From a virus (Duplodnaviria; Heunggongvirae; Uroviricota; Caudoviricetes), in IMG/VR virus record IMGVR_UViG_3300027301_000002: a stretch of DNA of 64,000 nucleotides; one strand, written 5' to 3'. The translations under genes and the position numbers were made by a program. Of this stretch, positions 6,332 through 30,348 are shown in pieces. The notes under the pieces were generated by a model. It was given only the letters and a program-made list of their open reading frames with translations. It searched no databases and was not told where the DNA came from. Each line of letters begins with the position of its first letter. Position 1 is the stretch's first letter.

Positions 6332-6403
6332 TGGTAGCCACGGTCGGACTCGAACCGACACTCTACGGATTTTAAGTCCGTTGCCTCTGCCATTGGACTA
6401 CGT
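6332..6403 (-). tRNA. tRNA with anticodon UAA (Leu UUR decoding) but class I (short variable arm), A73, CCA encoded
   Basis: Minus strand: GGCCACG-UA-GUCC..-A-ACGGA-CUUAAAA-UCCGU-AGAGU-GUCGG-UUCGAGU-CCGAC-CGUGGCU-A-CCA. Confidence 0.65.
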
Positions 6404-6425
6404 GGCCATGTTTCGTGTGATAGAT

Positions 6426-9564: not shown

Positions 9565-10590
9565 TTATTTGTTTGAGTCGTAATCGAGATTGATGATCTT
9601 GAACGAACCTTTGCTGTGTCGAACTACTACACCTTCAAAGGGTTTGCCATCGATTTGATTGATTCCTTTTTGGTAGAAGTTAATCATATCTTCGGATAGC
9701 AACGGCCTCACAGAGTGTTCAAAGTCAACAGTGTAATTGTCGTTTACAAACGGCACATGAGGAATTTGTAATACAGCCGCCACGTTCGGGGAGTAATCAG
9801 CGTCGCCTTCCTTTTCATACTTCAGGGTATTAAGATTGAAGACACTGAATACGGCAAAGTCCAAGGGACCTTTGCTGTGTGGGTTCTTGCTGAAATTTTG
9901 GATATTGCCTCCATAGATTTCACCTCGAAGAGCAAGTGATACGTCGTTCCGTTTGCAATACTCAAGAAGCTTCTCGAGAATATTGTATTTCTTCACGATC
10001 TTGGTATAGTTGTTATTAGTTTCTGGTTTGATTTCTAGATTGCGACTAGTAACACCAGTAGACCATTCTCCGGTCGACGGATCTTTGCGTGCGTAGTAAG
10101 TAGCACTTTGCCCATCAATCTTCAGGGTGACATCAACCTTTTCACCATACGGGAGAAACCCGATAAGGTTCTGGAATCGTTCTTCGTCAGTCTTCACCAG
10201 ACTATACGGCAGATTCCCTTTAGCATCCAGAGAGGTTGGAGCAGGTGGGTCGTACTTATATACCCCAATATGGGAACTAATCTCAGTACCAACTTCGACA
10301 TTTTGAAGATCGAATAACGAGTCTACTTCGGTAAGTCCCATGATAATACCAAACGACCATTCGCCTCGAAGCTTGATAGCTTTGACTCGCGACGACTTTT
10401 TCTTAAAGATTTCAGCCCAGGGCTTATCTGGAAGAACAGTATCGGGCTGGATAAAGACTACACGATCACCTACCTTATATTTGTCTTTAAGAGTGATGCA
10501 TTCATATCCTAGAACTCCAACGAGATCCAACGAATCTGCATTGGGATGATGTTTGACAGCAGCGATGGTTTCAATAGAGGCGAGCTTCAT
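9565..10590 (-). CDS. ATP-dependent RNA ligase-like nucleotidyltransferase with N-terminal tRNA-binding (Myf/Trbp111-type OB) domain
   Basis: The N-terminus AAVKHHPNADSLDLVGVLGYECITLKDKYKVGDRVVFIQPDTVLPD matches the tRNA-binding OB domain found at the MetRS C-terminus and in CsaA. It is followed by the ligase motif I KIDGQS (KxDG). A separate DNA ligase lies at 25869..27005. The start is placed at the internal Met (MKLASIE) because the 5' extension has poor composition. Confidence 0.6.
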   Translation of the reverse strand: MKLASIETIAAVKHHPNADSLDLVGVLGYECITLKDKYKVGDRVVFIQPDTVLPDKPWAEIFKKKSSRVKAIKLRGEWSFGIIMGLTEVDSLFDLQNVEVGTEISSHIGVYKYDPPAPTSLDAKGNLPYSLVKTDEERFQNLIGFLPYGEKVDVTLKIDGQSATYYARKDPSTGEWSTGVTSRNLEIKPETNNNYTKIVKKYNILEKLLEYCKRNDVSLALRGEIYGGNIQNFSKNPHSKGPLDFAVFSVFNLNTLKYEKEGDADYSPNVAAVLQIPHVPFVNDNYTVDFEHSVRPLLSEDMINFYQKGINQIDGKPFEGVVVRHSKGSFKIINLDYDSNK

Positions 10591-10630
10591 GTAGTTAATA
10601 TAGCTCGAGGTGTGATGTGTATCAACTATT

Positions 10631-10981
10631 TTAGCATTTAAGCCAGCGCCATCTTTTATGTCGAACTGCCCATTTTCGTGGGATCCATGACAAAATTTTA
10701 TTGACAAACGACATGACAACTTTGTTGTATTTATACTCAGTTGCATCCCCTTGTTTCCATACGACGATATGGTCGGGCACCACTGTTGGTCTGTTATTGC
10801 CTATGCGATAGACTCGATTCCAATATACAATATCTCTATATGGAGACACCCAGCCTTGGAACCTATCATATCGTGCTGTTAATGTGTCGTAGCTTCTTCT
10901 GGAGAAACTTCGTTCGGCATAGTGCCCATCTTCATGATAGACATATATCGTTGCATTTCCGAAATCATTAAGGGGATTCAT
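10631..10981 (-). CDS. hypothetical protein
   Basis: 116 aa, Trp/Arg-rich. Confidence 0.5.
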   Translation of the reverse strand: MNPLNDFGNATIYVYHEDGHYAERSFSRRSYDTLTARYDRFQGWVSPYRDIVYWNRVYRIGNNRPTVVPDHIVVWKQGDATEYKYNKVVMSFVNKILSWIPRKWAVRHKRWRWLKC

Positions 10982-13613: not shown

Positions 13614-14318
13614 TTATTCAGTGTAGTGGTACATATACGCTTCATGGCAATCAACGCAGCGGAATTTGGTATTCTCAACGAATGCGGTTGCTGATTCATG
13701 GAAGTGACCAAAGAACCAATGCTTTGGTTTAGTTAGTTGATACAGCTTATCCATATCTTCATTTTCAATCTTGAGATCCTGTTCCAGATCTTTATCAGCC
13801 ACCATCATCGATTTGACAAAGTTATTAATACCAAAAAGACCCGAGATCGGGGGGCGGGTATGAGTTACTACAGCATCGTATGTTTCGTATGCAAAATTCT
13901 CATTAAGATAGAACGTTTCATTTTTCCACCAAGTAGGAATGCTAGTATTATATCTATCAATCCGATCAATCGATACTGCACCGCCTACAAGAAGAATTTT
14001 CTTACCAAGCAATTCAAGAACAGTATAGTCGGGGAGCAATTCGATATTGTCATACCCTCCTATTGTCTTCCTAGTATTAAAGTATCCTGGGTCATCATGG
14101 TTTCCACGAATGACATACAAGTGACTATTCGATTCAGCAAGGAACTTGTGAAGTGGTTTGAGTAATTTTGGGTACTCATGATCCTCAAAGAAACCAATAC
14201 CAAAATCCCCCACATGGATGATATGAGCATTCTCGATTTGATTTCGCTTAAGCTTAATAGCAAAAAGACCAACATCTCCGTGAATGTCTCCAGCAATAAT
14301 AATTTTATCTTTTGTCAT
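13614..14318 (-). CDS. calcineurin-like metallophosphoesterase
   Basis: AGDIHGD ... HVGDFGIGF ... VIRGNHDD: the canonical DxH(x)nGDxxD(x)nGNH(D/E) motifs. Confidence 0.75.
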   Translation of the reverse strand: MTKDKIIIAGDIHGDVGLFAIKLKRNQIENAHIIHVGDFGIGFFEDHEYPKLLKPLHKFLAESNSHLYVIRGNHDDPGYFNTRKTIGGYDNIELLPDYTVLELLGKKILLVGGAVSIDRIDRYNTSIPTWWKNETFYLNENFAYETYDAVVTHTRPPISGLFGINNFVKSMMVADKDLEQDLKIENEDMDKLYQLTKPKHWFFGHFHESATAFVENTKFRCVDCHEAYMYHYTE

Positions 14319-15161: not shown

Positions 15162-15404
15162 TCACCAAGCAGATGGATTGCATATATTCCGAAACAGATA
15201 CTGAATATAGAATCGACACTTCAGATATGTGTTGAATAAGAGTTGTTCTTTTTGACTATAGATTTTGTAATCGTCTGGTATTGTATACCAGAAACCATAC
15301 TTCAGGAATGAGTCACTGTCGATATGTTTTCTGATCTTGCGAATTTGTTGGAGGCGAGGATCTTGTGTCATTGTGACATTATTTATTTTACGAACATCTG
15401 CCAA
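15162..15404 (-). CDS. hypothetical protein
   Basis: 80 aa ORF; overlaps the HNH gene start by 22 nt. Confidence 0.35.
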   Translation of the reverse strand: MADVRKINNVTMTQDPRLQQIRKIRKHIDSDSFLKYGFWYTIPDDYKIYSQKEQLLFNTYLKCRFYIQYLFRNICNPSAW

Positions 15405-15982
15405 TCATCACGCAAAATATCAAATACTACACCATCTTTTGGTTTGGTGGGTTTCCATAGCAACTTCAACCCACATTCAGACGGAGTCCTATCTGCTTTA
15501 GCGTTATTCACTTCGCGATCACAGCAGACCAAATTATCCCAAGTGTTGGTACCACCTCTGCTAGAAGGAATGATATGATCAACACTGAGTTCACTCTTTT
15601 GTAGTTTCTTTCCGGTGTATGCACAAGTATAGTTATCTCTCCGAAAAATGTTTTGCTTAGTAGGAAATTTGCCCTTCTTAATGACCATTCGGTCGAATCT
15701 GCTACAGATCACAATGGAGGGCAACCGCACTGGTCCTTTGGATGTTTGTACATAATCATCACAAGGACGAATAGGTAGCTTGATCCATTGCTTCCAGTCC
15801 TTGATTGCGATGAACGATTCTATTTGCGTAGTATCGTACGACCCATCCTCATTCTGGGTGTAGCTAATATCCAGTGGGACAAAAGATTTGGAGAAAATAC
15901 CAACCATGATATCAGACCAACTAGCCGGTTCTAGTGGTTGATAGTTAGCATTGAGCTTTAAAATTGGTCTCTTTGAGATCAT
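15383..15982 (-). CDS. HNH endonuclease
   Basis: C-terminal SVDHIIPSSRGGTNTWDNLVCCDREVNNAKADR is a classic HNH motif. Confidence 0.75.
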   Translation of the reverse strand: MISKRPILKLNANYQPLEPASWSDIMVGIFSKSFVPLDISYTQNEDGSYDTTQIESFIAIKDWKQWIKLPIRPCDDYVQTSKGPVRLPSIVICSRFDRMVIKKGKFPTKQNIFRRDNYTCAYTGKKLQKSELSVDHIIPSSRGGTNTWDNLVCCDREVNNAKADRTPSECGLKLLWKPTKPKDGVVFDILRDDWQMFVK

Positions 15983-21904: not shown

Positions 21905-21993
21905 GGGTTCTTTTCCTGACGGTGGACTGTAAATCCATTGCCGTGTTATGTCAGGCGGTTCGGCAGAAGGTTCAACTCCTTGAGGACCCACCA
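21905..21993 (+). tRNA. tRNA-Tyr (GUA), long variable arm
   Basis: Acceptor GGGUUCU/AGGACCC, anticodon arm GUGGA-CUGUAAA-UCCAU, long extra arm, T-loop UUCAACU, A73-CCA encoded. Confidence 0.7.
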
Positions 21994-22083: not shown

Positions 22084-22176
22084 GGATGATTAAGCAGACA
22101 AGCGTGCTGCATCTGTTTGGAAGACAGATTGATCTAGTGATCCTAGGTTGGGGTGCAAGTCCTCATTCATCCGCCA
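22084..22176 (+). tRNA. tRNA-Ser (GGA), class II, T-loop UGCAAGU
   Basis: D-stem GCAG/CUGC, anticodon arm UCUGU-UUGGAAG-ACAGA, long extra arm, T-arm GGGG-UGCAAGU-CCUC, G73-CCA. Confidence 0.6.
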
Positions 22177-22264: not shown

Positions 22265-22357
22265 GGGTAGCTAAACAGACAAGCGCGCTGTAACCGCCTT
22301 GAAAGCGGATTGATCTAGTGATCCTAGGTTGGGGTGCAAGTCCTCAGTTACCCGCCA
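22265..22357 (+). tRNA. tRNA-Ser (UGA), class II, T-loop UGCAAGU
   Basis: Paralog of 22084..22176; anticodon loop CUUGAAA; G73-CCA. Confidence 0.6.
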
Positions 22358-22824: not shown

Positions 22825-22917
22825 GGGTAGTTAAGCAGACAAGCGTACTGCAACCGTCTCGAAAGCGGATTGATCTAGCGAACCTAGGTTGGGGTGCAAG
22901 TCCTCAGCTACCCGCCA
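22825..22917 (+). tRNA. tRNA-Ser (CGA), class II, T-loop UGCAAGU
   Basis: Third member of the Ser paralog family; anticodon loop CUCGAAA; G73-CCA. Confidence 0.6.
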
Positions 22918-24050: not shown

Positions 24051-24146
24051 GCTCCTGTAGCTCAATTGGTAGAGCGGAAAGCTTATACCTTTCGTATGCC
24101 CCAGATTAGGGCGCGGTTGTCGGTTCGAATCCGGCCAGGAGTACCA
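24051..24146 (+). tRNA. atypical 96-nt tRNA-like gene: canonical D- and T-arms, anticodon-arm-like hairpin with UAU, plus a long extra hairpin
   Basis: Acceptor GCUCCUG/CAGGAGU, D-arm GCUC-AAUUGGUA-GAGC, hairpin GAAAG-CUUAUAC-CUUUC, second hairpin GCCC-CAGAUUA-GGGC, T-arm GUCGG-UUCGAAU-CCGGC, A73-CCA. Identity unresolved. Confidence 0.45.
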
Positions 24147-24641: not shown

Positions 24642-24716
24642 TCCTCAGTGGCAGACTAGCAATGCACCCGACTGTTAATCGGGATTATGAAGGAGCGTAA
24701 CCTTCCTGAGGAGCCA
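24642..24716 (+). tRNA. tRNA-Asn (GUU), atypical T-loop AGCGUAA
   Basis: Perfect acceptor UCCUCAG/CUGAGGA, anticodon arm CCCGA-CUGUUAA-UCGGG, T-arm GAAGG-AGCGUAA-CCUUC, G73-CCA. Confidence 0.6.
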
Positions 24717-25476: not shown

Positions 25477-25571
25477 GGAGTGTAAACCAAACAGGCGCGT
25501 TGGAACTGTTTGCTAAACAGATTGTGGTTTTGCTAAAAAGCCATCTGGTTCGAGTCCAGTGCACTCCGCCA
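25477..25571 (+). tRNA. tRNA-Ser (GCU), class II
   Basis: Acceptor GGAGUGU/GCACUCC, D-stem CCAA/UUGG, anticodon arm ACUGU-UUGCUAA-ACAGA, long extra arm, T-loop UUCGAGU, G73-CCA. Confidence 0.6.
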
Positions 25572-29797: not shown

Positions 29798-29874
29798 AGC
29801 CACGTGATGTAATTGGTAAACGTGACGGTCTCAAAAACTGTTTTCTATGGGTTCGAGTCCCATCGTGGCTACCA
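29798..29874 (+). tRNA. tRNA with anticodon CAA (Leu UUG), class I (short variable arm), A73
   Basis: Perfect acceptor AGCCACG/CGUGGCU, D-arm AUGU-AAUUGGUAA-ACGU, anticodon arm ACGGU-CUCAAAA-ACUGU, 5-nt variable loop, T-arm AUGGG-UUCGAGU-CCCAU, A73-CCA. Confidence 0.65.
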
Positions 29875-29875
29875 T

Positions 29876-29952
29876 GCCCTGTGTAGCATATTTAGTTAAT
29901 GTCTTCGCCTGTGAAGCGAACGAAGATGGTGCAATTCCATCCCAGGGAACCA
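29876..29952 (+). tRNA. tRNA-His(GUG)-like gene with imperfect acceptor stem (possible pseudo-tRNA)
   Basis: Anticodon arm UUCGC-CUGUGAA-GCGAA and T-arm GAUGG-UGCAAUU-CCAUC are clean, but the 5'/3' acceptor pairing (GCCCUGU vs CCAGGGA) has terminal mismatches. A-CCA follows. Confidence 0.35.
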
Positions 29953-29954
29953 AT

Positions 29955-30100
29955 TCGCGAATAGTTAATGGTATCGTTCGAAAGATACTAAAGACTAACT
30001 GAGACCCCCATTTCGAAGTTTATAGGTTGAACACCGCAGTTAATCGGTGCGGGAGGTGTGTTCGAGTGCACACGATGGATCAGGTCTCGACAATTTACAT
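29955..30100 (+). ncRNA. irregular structured segment inside the tRNA array (tRNA-like fragments; not a clean cloverleaf)
   Basis: Begins GCGAAUAGUUAAUGGUAUCG (tRNA 5'-like). Contains hairpins GUAUC-GUUCGAAA-GAUAC and CACCG-CAGUUAAU-CGGUG and a T-arm-like GUGUG-UUCGAGUG-CACAC, with no matching acceptor 3' strand. Confidence 0.3.
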
Positions 30101-30102
30101 AT

Positions 30103-30176
30103 GCCCGCATAGCCCAATCGGTAGAGGCACTTGACTTAGGATCAAGAGGTTGGGGGTTCGAATCCCTCTGCGGGTA
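30103..30176 (+). tRNA. tRNA with anticodon UAG (Leu CUN), class I, A73, no encoded CCA
   Basis: Acceptor GCCCGCA/UGCGGGU, anticodon arm CUUGA-CUUAGGA-UCAAG, variable AGGUU, T-arm GGGGG-UUCGAAU-CCCUC, A73 followed by CUU. Confidence 0.6.
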
Positions 30177-30184
30177 CTTTTTAT

Positions 30185-30265
30185 GGGAGTGTTAGCGTAG
30201 CGGCCGAACGCACCAGTTTTACACACTGGCAATCATCACAGGTTCGAATCCTGTCGCTCCTACCA
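30185..30265 (+). tRNA. tRNA-Val (UAC), slightly oversized D and variable regions
   Basis: Acceptor GGGAGUG/CGCUCCU, anticodon arm CCAGU-UUUACAC-ACUGG, T-arm ACAGG-UUCGAAU-CCUGU, A73-CCA; 81 nt. Confidence 0.55.
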
Positions 30266-30271
30266 TTTCAT

Positions 30272-30348
30272 GGCTATATGACGTAATTGGTAAACGTATT
30301 GCATTGAGGATGCAAGTTTTGCAGGTTCGAGTCCTGTTATAGCCACCA
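30272..30348 (+). tRNA. tRNA with anticodon GAG (Leu CUY), class I, A73
   Basis: Perfect acceptor GGCUAUA/UAUAGCC, D-arm ACGU-AAUUGGUAA-ACGU, anticodon arm UUGCA-UUGAGGA-UGCAA, 4-nt variable loop, T-arm GCAGG-UUCGAGU-CCUGU, A73-CCA. Confidence 0.65.

Follow-up and report, generated by a model that had tools for sequence, protein, structure and literature searches.

Four short leucine tRNA genes in a phage genome

A 64,000-nucleotide stretch of a Caudoviricetes phage genome (IMG/VR record IMGVR_UViG_3300027301_000002; the whole stretch is referred to as the window) was searched for tRNA genes with ARAGORN and with the Rfam RF00005 covariance model. Four genes with leucine anticodons were found, and both programs supported them as class I tRNAs, that is, tRNAs with a short variable loop (type I in the biochemical literature). 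They were tRNA-Leu(UAA) at 6332..6407 (minus strand; Rfam tRNA score 62.3 bits), tRNA-Leu(CAA) at 29798..29874 (plus strand; 57.9 bits), tRNA-Leu(UAG) at 30103..30177 (plus strand; 66 bits) and tRNA-Leu(GAG) at 30272..30348 (plus strand; 65.4 bits), all four being ARAGORN calls. Their Rfam scores, 57.9 to 66 bits, ranked among the better ones of the tRNA array described below. An earlier note on this DNA, made from the letters alone, had described all four as class I and had placed them at these loci; both points were borne out, except that the UAA gene, given there as 6332..6403 and with no strand, had to be corrected to 6332..6407 on the minus strand.

The genes measured 73 nt (UAA) or 74 nt (CAA, UAG and GAG) up to the discriminator base and 75 to 77 nt including the encoded CCA, which was present in the UAA, CAA and GAG genes and absent from the UAG gene. 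Acceptor (7 bp), anticodon (5 bp) and T (5 bp) stems were intact throughout. The UAA and UAG tRNAs had a 3-bp D-stem, the D-loops CAAUGGCAGA and CAAUCGGUAGA, the variable loops AGAGU and AGGUU, and A37 and G37, respectively. The CAA and GAG tRNAs had U8 G9, a 4-bp D-stem (AUGU/ACGU and ACGU/ACGU), a common D-loop AAUUGGUAA, the variable loops UUUCU and GUUUU, and A37 and G37, respectively. In standard numbering the variable loop was 5 nt long in all four; the 4-nt loop that ARAGORN drew for the CAA tRNA arose because positions 26 and 44 were paired. A73, also reported in the earlier note, was present in every one, as were G18G19 and a canonical T-loop (UUCGAGU or UUCGAAU), and the 7-nt anticodon loops with U33 (CUUAAAA for UAA, CUCAAAA for CAA, CUUAGGA for UAG and UUGAGGA for GAG) were all canonical.

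The variable arm of more than 10 nt, folded as a stem-loop, that defines canonical class II bacterial tRNA-Leu was found in none of the four. With 73 to 74 nt up to the discriminator there was therefore no room for a misfolded long arm, an error that the earlier note had considered, and neither a hidden long arm nor a class II tRNA-Leu was detected in the 64-kb window (of a genome of about 176 kb), even by a permissive Rfam search. By standard wobble the anticodons UAA, CAA, UAG and GAG covered all six leucine codons, as had been claimed, and formed a non-redundant set in which position 37 obeyed the bacterial rule (A37 in readers of UUR, G37 in readers of CUN).

Leucine identity

A leucine-type core (U8-A14, A15:U48, G18G19 with 3 to 4 nt before and 3 nt after it, A20a and A73) was present in all four tRNAs and in no other tRNA of the window. 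All four thus possessed the determinants of leucyl-tRNA synthetase (LeuRS) that lie outside the extra arm (A73, A14, A15:U48, G18G19 and A20a). E. coli LeuRS requires A73, A15-U48, G18G19, A20a and the tertiary pairs between D- and T-arms, and needs neither the anticodon nor the long arm (Giege and Eriani, PMC9976931). Among the loci fetched for comparison, G18G19 was preceded by 4 and followed by 3 D-loop nt in 247 of the 279 class I and in 19 of the 28 class II tRNA-Leu, and in a minority of every other isotype, and a generalised leucine D-arm pattern matched 61% of class II tRNA-Leu versus 7.6% of 825 non-leucine tRNAs.

Nearest-neighbour classification, by which 11 to 15 of the 15 nearest neighbours of the four tRNAs were leucine tRNAs, was dropped owing to a leucine-rich reference set (the tRNA-Trp and the UAU tRNA of the window also drew leucine neighbours) and was replaced by one profile hidden Markov model per isotype, built from about 1,100 tRNAs of the fetched loci with anticodons masked and the window phage excluded. 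For the UAA and UAG tRNAs the class I leucine profile scored 57.3 and 57.5 bits and the best non-leucine profile 37.5 and 36.2 bits, respectively. The CAA tRNA scored highest with the class II leucine profile (41.7 bits), followed by class I leucine (34.4 bits) and the best non-leucine profile (33.4 bits), while for the GAG tRNA the order was class I leucine (23.6 bits), class II leucine (22.3 bits) and glutamine, the best non-leucine profile (21.7 bits). A leucine profile was accordingly first in all four cases, with margins over the best non-leucine profile of about 20 (UAA), 21 (UAG), 8 (CAA) and 2 bits (GAG, narrowly). Among 25 control tRNAs of the window a leucine profile was first in none and the tRNA's own isotype in 17. 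Assignment to a non-leucine family, which the earlier note had envisaged, was thus returned by these home-made profiles for none of the four.

The phage uses all six leucine codons, each making up 9 to 22% of its leucine codons. In nrdA each of the six was aligned with leucine in 42 to 100% of cases in three cyanophage NrdA proteins, versus 5.5% for other codons; leucine codons therefore mean leucine in this phage. Two further candidate origins were rejected. An anticodon-shifted tRNA of another isotype did not agree with bodies that matched leucine by neighbours, D-loop geometry, D-arm pattern and masked profiles, and a tRNA-Leu of the animal mitochondrial type did not agree with the canonical G18G19 and UUCGA(G/A)U T-loops of all four.

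Distribution of short tRNA-Leu genes

A sensitive BLAST search with the array returned annotated tRNA-Leu genes in two Gordonia phages, Keelan (tag, 75 nt, 84% identical to the UAG tRNA of the window) and Sixama (tag, 76 nt, and taa, 74 nt). The D-arm of the UAG tRNA, the 19-mer TAGCCCAATYGGYAGAGGC, was used as a probe against IMG/VR and against GTDB contigs (one genome per species). In IMG/VR at least 122 instances were found in at least 118 contigs. Among the matches listed, 108 of 122 were called as tRNAs, all 108 with leucine anticodons (taa 40, tag 39, caa 25, aag 2, gag 1 and cag 1) and with sizes of 74 to 78 nt (106 tRNAs) or 84 nt (two); the remaining 14 were truncated or interrupted by insertions. 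At the IMG/VR loci L012, L096, L031, L097, L103, L107 and L113 a leucine-type D-arm was followed by an insertion of 50 to more than 100 nt before the T-arm, which was visible within the 130 nt read in L012, L096, L031 and L097. ARAGORN called none of these copies, which may be intron-containing short tRNA-Leu genes.

In GTDB the 19-mer was present at no fewer than 120 loci, and among the matches listed 117 of 123 instances were 74- to 78-nt tRNAs with leucine anticodons. The matches listed came mostly from Actinomycetota (Nocardia, Mycobacterium, Corynebacterium, Gordonia, Arthrobacter and others), with further ones from Planctomycetota, Acidimicrobiia, Myxococcus and one cyanobacterium. A single tRNA was present at 98 of the 120 listed bacterial loci, and a few loci were arrays of 8 to 26 tRNAs. 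The Nocardia copies shared 1 to 5 kb of flanking synteny between species, and from such surroundings the single-tRNA bacterial copies look like ordinary chromosomal genes. A metagenome-assembled genome of Planctomycetota (L125, 3550-3912) carried a tandem of short tRNA-Leu genes with anticodons cag, taa and gag, after which comes a 100-nt tRNA-Tyr; short leucine tRNAs may be the norm in some Planctomycetota.

Every one of the 225 called tRNAs listed from the two databases had a leucine anticodon. A73 and U48 were at least 97% conserved among them, and the variable loop was 5 nt long in more than 90%. In the 127 distinct members of the family, U8, A14, A15, G18, G19, A20a, U48, U54, U55, C56, A58 and A73 were invariant, and two to six canonical pair types were seen in the acceptor stem and the anticodon stem. 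Several canonical pair types per stem position indicate that the members diverged via compensatory changes. Without a body that specifies leucine it would be difficult to account for one D-arm occurring with leucine anticodons only (of all six types) across 225 diverged genes.

Short leucine tRNAs were also found in the cultured Pseudomonas phage Ep020, where a class I tRNA-Leu(tag) adjoins a class II tRNA-Tyr, and in an uncultured 636-kb phage with class I and class II tRNA-Leu together. Across the fetched phage loci, tRNA-Ser was class II in 46 of 46 cases and tRNA-Tyr in 20 of 25, and of the tRNA-Leu 170 were class I and 29 were class II, a ratio inflated by the picking of loci with class I probes. 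Only 3 of the 16 fetched loci with at least three leucine tRNAs were entirely class I, like the window, and the other 13 mixed both classes. No report of class I tRNA-Leu in phages was found by literature searches in a library that lacks most subscription journals, and the papers found on mobile long tRNA arrays (L-arrays) were silent on short leucine tRNAs.

Two structural lineages

The four tRNAs fell into two structural lineages. The UAA and UAG tRNAs share A9, the 3-bp D-stem and a D-loop of 11 or 10 nt, and the CAA and GAG tRNAs share G9, the 4-bp D-stem and the D-loop given above. In IMG/VR the D-arm of the CAA and GAG tRNAs, GAYGTAATTGGTAAACGT (U8 G9, GAYGUAAUUGGUAAACGU), was found in nine class I and two class II phage tRNA-Leu; the class II carriers of the identical D-arm were L257 (tag, 87 nt) and L258 (taa, 85 nt). 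On this likeness the CAA/GAG pair looks like phage class II tRNA-Leu minus the extra stem-loop, and the UAA and UAG tRNAs belong, judged by their D-arms, to the other, widespread lineage. Since there are two structural lineages, one of which shares its D-arm with class II tRNA-Leu, the arm was probably lost more than once, that is, at least twice.

The tRNA array and the phage carrying it

ARAGORN called 29 tRNA genes in the window, most of which were confirmed by the Rfam tRNA model, which added a tRNA-Asn(GUU) at 24642..24713 (plus strand; 47.9 bits) that the default ARAGORN run missed and that appeared there only at a relaxed threshold. Between 21.9 and 30.4 kb lie 28 of the ARAGORN tRNAs, the tRNA-Asn and a Tyr-like element. 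The array is a near-complete tRNA set of more than 30 genes, in or near which the four leucine tRNAs sit. It showed the features of the mobile L-array type that were compared (a dense cluster of at least 20 tRNAs, coverage of most amino acids and an HNH endonuclease, here at 15383..15982), the comparison being one of features.

According to the earlier note, the serine and tyrosine tRNAs of this genome keep their long arms. For serine this held: ARAGORN called four class II tRNA-Ser genes on the plus strand (22084-22176, 22265-22357, 22825-22917 and 25477-25571), all with extra arms of 19 to 22 nt and G73. For tyrosine it is weakly supported, since the candidate tRNA-Tyr(GUA) at 21905..21993 (plus strand) combines a good acceptor stem, a long extra region and an encoded CCA with a degenerate, almost absent D-arm, and scored only 26 bits (E=0.1) with the Rfam tRNA-Sec model and 10.3 bits with the tyrosine profile. 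ARAGORN gave no call for this element, even at the relaxed threshold.

Several other elements of the array were unusual. A 96-nt tRNA(UAU) (AUA, Ile) at 24051..24146 (plus strand) combines A73 and an ordinary class I D-arm with a 25-nt extra arm, the stem of which is GCCC/GGGC and the 7-nt loop CAGAUUA; the loop resembles an anticodon loop and includes GAU, the anticodon of the major tRNA-Ile. Long-arm tRNA(UAU) recurred in unrelated IMG/VR phage contigs (L033 3104-3195, minus strand; L101 761-854; L258 2168-2259), with CAGAUUA and CCGAUUA as arm loops. Between tRNA-His and tRNA-Leu(UAG), a 150-nt spacer at 29953..30102 (plus strand) has a stable multi-stem fold (-42.9 kcal/mol, z = -2.67) that includes a T-arm-like hairpin, GUGUG-UUCGAGUG-CACAC. 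It was called by none of ARAGORN, Rfam and the isotype profiles, and may be a degenerate or non-canonical tRNA-like element. Both tRNA-Gly genes (22746 and 27425) have A73 and the tRNA-Gln (22926) has U73, discriminator bases that depart from the usual bacterial ones, and the tRNA-His (29876) has a possible encoded G-1 opposite A73, for which ARAGORN draws another acceptor register. These unusual glycine, glutamine and histidine discriminators might aid host identification.

The remainder of the window encodes ribonucleotide reductase (RNR), a T4 Y07C-like open reading frame (ORF), PhoH, DNA ligase, RNA ligase, thymidylate synthase and giant tail-fibre-like ORFs, and the phage is a large one with some T4-like genes. 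The RNR large subunit is interrupted (35865..40809, plus strand): a 735-aa ORF ending in an intein-splicing-like segment is followed by a 362-aa ORF with no family match and then by a short ORF with the remaining RNR barrel domain, the small subunit lying downstream. The RNA ligase (9565..10746, minus strand; PHROG 968, Pfam RNA_ligase and a PHA02142 OB domain) and a calcineurin-like metallophosphoesterase (13614..14318, minus strand) lie within a few kb of tRNA-Leu(UAA), and these two together could provide RNA or tRNA repair capacity.

An exact protein match led to a 175,870-bp ENA contig (ERZ27251826:k141_302571), in which locus L242 has the same tRNA array. The matching protein was indexed in 98 assembly-collection blocks, and the same gene neighbourhood was present in all 24 contigs read. 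A megablast search of the tRNA region against INPHARED gave no match at the nucleotide level, and the only IMG/VR relative was one 17.6-kb fragment beginning downstream of the tRNAs. Homologues of a downstream 193-aa lysozyme-like ORF lay in unrelated phages, none of which had a syntenic tRNA array, and those of the DNA ligase led to a single distant contig with no leucine tRNA. With no close relative carrying a syntenic array, arm loss could not be dated within the phage lineage. Clues to the host were not decisive: the RNR was 47 to 49% identical to cyanomyophage NrdA, the lysozyme had matches of about 50% in Flavobacterium and Dyadobacter, an 871-aa ORF had no phage match and a helicase-like ORF matched only distant RadA-like genes.

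Comparison with known short leucine tRNAs

A close counterpart is the type I tRNA-Leu(CAA) of Streptomyces coelicolor, which has the 5-nt variable loop ACAGC; the other four tRNA-Leu of this species are type II (Fan et al. 2019, NAR, PMC6614811). S. coelicolor LeuRS leucylates both types, a capacity given for type I by its leucine-specific domain; 5 nt was the shortest variable loop for efficient charging, and attempts to delete the gene were unsuccessful (PMC6614811). The tRNAs of the window resemble it in the leucine anticodon, the 5-nt variable loop, U8-A14, G18G19 and A73. The loop ACAGC is also similar to the NCAGU consensus of the UAA/UAG family, and one Streptomyces genome copy (L200) had the same D-arm 19-mer. 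They differ in that the S. coelicolor gene is chromosomal and provides one isoacceptor among four class II tRNA-Leu, whereas the window has four phage-borne isoacceptors, all short; in addition, the S. coelicolor tRNA has C48 and the four have U48, and the CAA and GAG tRNAs, with G9 and a 4-bp D-stem, represent a different structural lineage.

A likeness in gene organisation was seen in the trn operon on plasmid delta of Nostoc (Anabaena) PCC 7120 (L272, 48056-53593), in which ARAGORN called tRNA-Leu caa, tag, gag and taa, all 75 to 78 nt long and with both leucine D-arm types represented, beside a tRNA-Tyr (87 nt) and a tRNA-Ser(GCU) (90 nt) that keep their long arms. Like the window, this operon is a dense array (about 24 to 26 tRNAs) near an HNH endonuclease and has the same four leucine anticodons; unlike the window, which is part of a lytic phage genome, it is borne by a plasmid or chromosome, is induced by stress in a cyanobacterium and has another gene order. 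On induction 23 of its 26 tRNAs were aminoacylated in vivo and three were undetected (Santamaria-Gomez et al. 2021, PMC8421152), so at least one of the four short leucine tRNAs is charged; the short leucine tRNAs themselves were left uncommented (PMC8421152). The T-arm is aberrant in the GAG copy of Nostoc, a gene that may be among the three pseudogenes that have been reported. A Cylindrospermum array (L198) similarly contained five leucine tRNAs, all short and of both D-arm types, with long serine and tyrosine tRNAs.

With canonical class II bacterial and T4-type tRNA-Leu the four share A73, A14, A15:U48, the G18G19 spacing, A20a and A37/G37 according to codon box, and differ in having 5 nt in place of the 10- to 17-nt extra stem-loop. 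In mitochondrial tRNAs the D and T loops are reduced or aberrant, whereas the four have fully canonical bacterial elbows. The short variable loop and the A73 and A14 determinants recall animal mitochondrial type I tRNA-Leu (PMC9976931); human mt-tRNA-Leu(UUR) has its own dedicated LeuRS, and S. coelicolor LeuRS cannot charge it (PMC6614811). In the literature, type I tRNA-Leu has been called rare in bacteria, with no mention of phages (PMC6614811), and a 2023 review assigns a long arm to tRNA-Leu in all organisms but animal mitochondria (PMC9976931). The contrast with bacteria drawn by the earlier note is therefore sound as regards canonical class II tRNA-Leu and too absolute as a premise, since S. 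coelicolor, other Actinomycetota and the Nostoc trn operon have short-arm tRNA-Leu.

Interpretation

Taken together, the four genes are likely to be functional, leucine-accepting type I tRNAs of a lineage that circulates in phages, mobile long tRNA arrays and some bacterial chromosomes. They would be transcribed and processed like the neighbouring tRNAs, with CCA addition required for the UAG tRNA. The host LeuRS would charge them via A73, U8-A14, the A15:U48 Levitt pair, G18G19 placed four nt into the D-loop, A20a and the D/T elbow, with neither the anticodon nor the extra arm required, and their 5-nt variable loop would be just the minimum for efficient charging in the sole type I system tested. 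Decoding as leucine would be divided among UAA (UUA/UUG), CAA (UUG), UAG (CUA/CUG, perhaps CUN) and GAG (CUC/CUU). SerRS takes the size of the extra arm as its main identity element, and LeuRS does not need the arm; by these established identity rules arm loss would be tolerated for leucine only and forbidden for serine. Bacterial TyrRS also binds the extra arm. Among the three explanations offered by the earlier note, a distinctive recognition mode of the host LeuRS comes closest, as regards an arm that is not needed; it need not be peculiar to one host, and charging of arm-less tRNA-Leu would rather follow from the known leucine identity set (PMC9976931).

Some points weigh against this reading. 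E. coli LeuRS fails on the S. coelicolor type I tRNA-Leu (PMC6614811); whether such a tRNA is charged thus turns on the enzyme of the host and is not to be taken for granted. A15:U48 with A73 had to be rejected as a leucine-specific signature because both occur in several non-leucine tRNAs of the phage, and only when D-loop spacing and A20a were added were the four leucine tRNAs singled out. The 100% pairing of the 19-mer family is partly built in, its members having been chosen on a perfect ARAGORN bracket string. The isotype profiles, home-made, were trained on loci enriched for class I tRNA-Leu and were about 68% accurate on the controls, and the margin for the GAG tRNA was only about 2 bits.

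A selective reason for the short form may be sought in evasion of a nuclease of host defence or of a phage takeover enzyme that recognises the arm or tRNA-Leu, leucine still being accepted. This explanation, which would supplement the reading as leucine-accepting type I tRNAs and not displace it, is at present an unlikely one. Phage tRNAs that bypass anticodon nucleases are known (PMC10264068, PMC11555353), human SLFN11 and SLFN14 are reported to cut type II tRNAs, tRNA-Leu included, selectively, and Schlafen nuclease domains are spread over 34 bacterial phyla (PMC13056530); yet the one bacterial Schlafen with reported substrates cuts class I tRNAs (Lys, Met and Ala), with no type II specificity (PMC13056530), and literature searches found no bacterial nuclease specific for type II tRNAs, tRNA-Leu or the leucine arm. 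The RNA ligase and metallophosphoesterase of the window could mend cleaved RNA, but a nuclease directed at the arm would still cripple the phage, as serine and apparently tyrosine tRNAs of the array keep theirs, and the anticodon loops of the four leucine tRNAs are canonical. Class I tRNA-Leu is enriched in mobile arrays that are induced by translational stress, alongside the RNases VapC, MazF and RelE (PMC8421152); against this, 13 of the 16 phage loci with three or more leucine tRNAs mix the two classes, and the chromosomal single-copy class I tRNA-Leu(UAA) of Nocardia exists outside any phage context. A wider form of the same idea, which we regard as more doubtful still, would see in short-arm tRNA-Leu a distinguishing mark of mobile translation kits (phage arrays and stress-induced L-arrays), selected for resistance to some as yet undescribed bacterial nuclease or toxin that recognises the arm or body of housekeeping class II tRNA-Leu, in analogy to SLFN11 and SLFN14; serine and tyrosine tRNAs could not follow because their synthetases need the arm.

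It is highly improbable that the four genes are non-functional, either as decaying pseudo-tRNAs or as uncharged decoys that bind a host factor. The idea has no direct support, its nearest parallels being the aberrant T-arm of the GAG gene and the three undetectable tRNAs of the Nostoc trn operon, and it is opposed by Rfam scores of 58 to 66 bits, intact stems, canonical T-loops and G18G19, an encoded CCA in three of the four, compensatory changes over hundreds of diverged copies, and non-redundant anticodons covering six codons. Least credible of all is recoding or mischarging, also put forward in the earlier note, by which tRNAs remoulded from another isotype through an anticodon change would read leucine codons with another amino acid: the class I shape is unusual for leucine, the glutamine profile was only about 2 bits behind leucine for the GAG tRNA and two IMG/VR tRNAs with the CAA/GAG-type D-arm have a UUG anticodon, but the masked leucine profiles came first for all four, the 19-mer was confined to leucine anticodons in the 225 called tRNAs listed, the CAA/GAG D-arm is common to class II tRNA-Leu, the full LeuRS determinant set is present, the six leucine codons align with leucine in nrdA homologues and a related bacterial tRNA was leucylated in vitro (PMC6614811).

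As type I tRNA-Leu, the four genes are of a known kind, one that is much commoner in mobile tRNA sets than the literature suggests. Modestly new is the complete, all-short set of four isoacceptors, drawn from two structural lineages, which makes the window a clean counterexample to the view that type I tRNA-Leu is rare or absent. Short leucine tRNAs abound in phages, mobile tRNA arrays and Actinomycetota, and annotation pipelines may mark such genes as isotype mismatches even though they are very probably genuine leucine tRNAs. They provide a natural test set for the tolerance of LeuRS, with its leucine-specific domain, to loss of the arm, and arm loss confined to leucine in arrays that keep the serine and tyrosine arms amounts to a natural experiment on arm-dependent synthetases. 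If resistance to a nuclease did underlie the short form, a phage with a full armless set would be able to decode all six leucine codons after the tRNA-Leu of the host had been destroyed. What the phage itself gains is probably ordinary, namely the supply of leucine decoding during infection.

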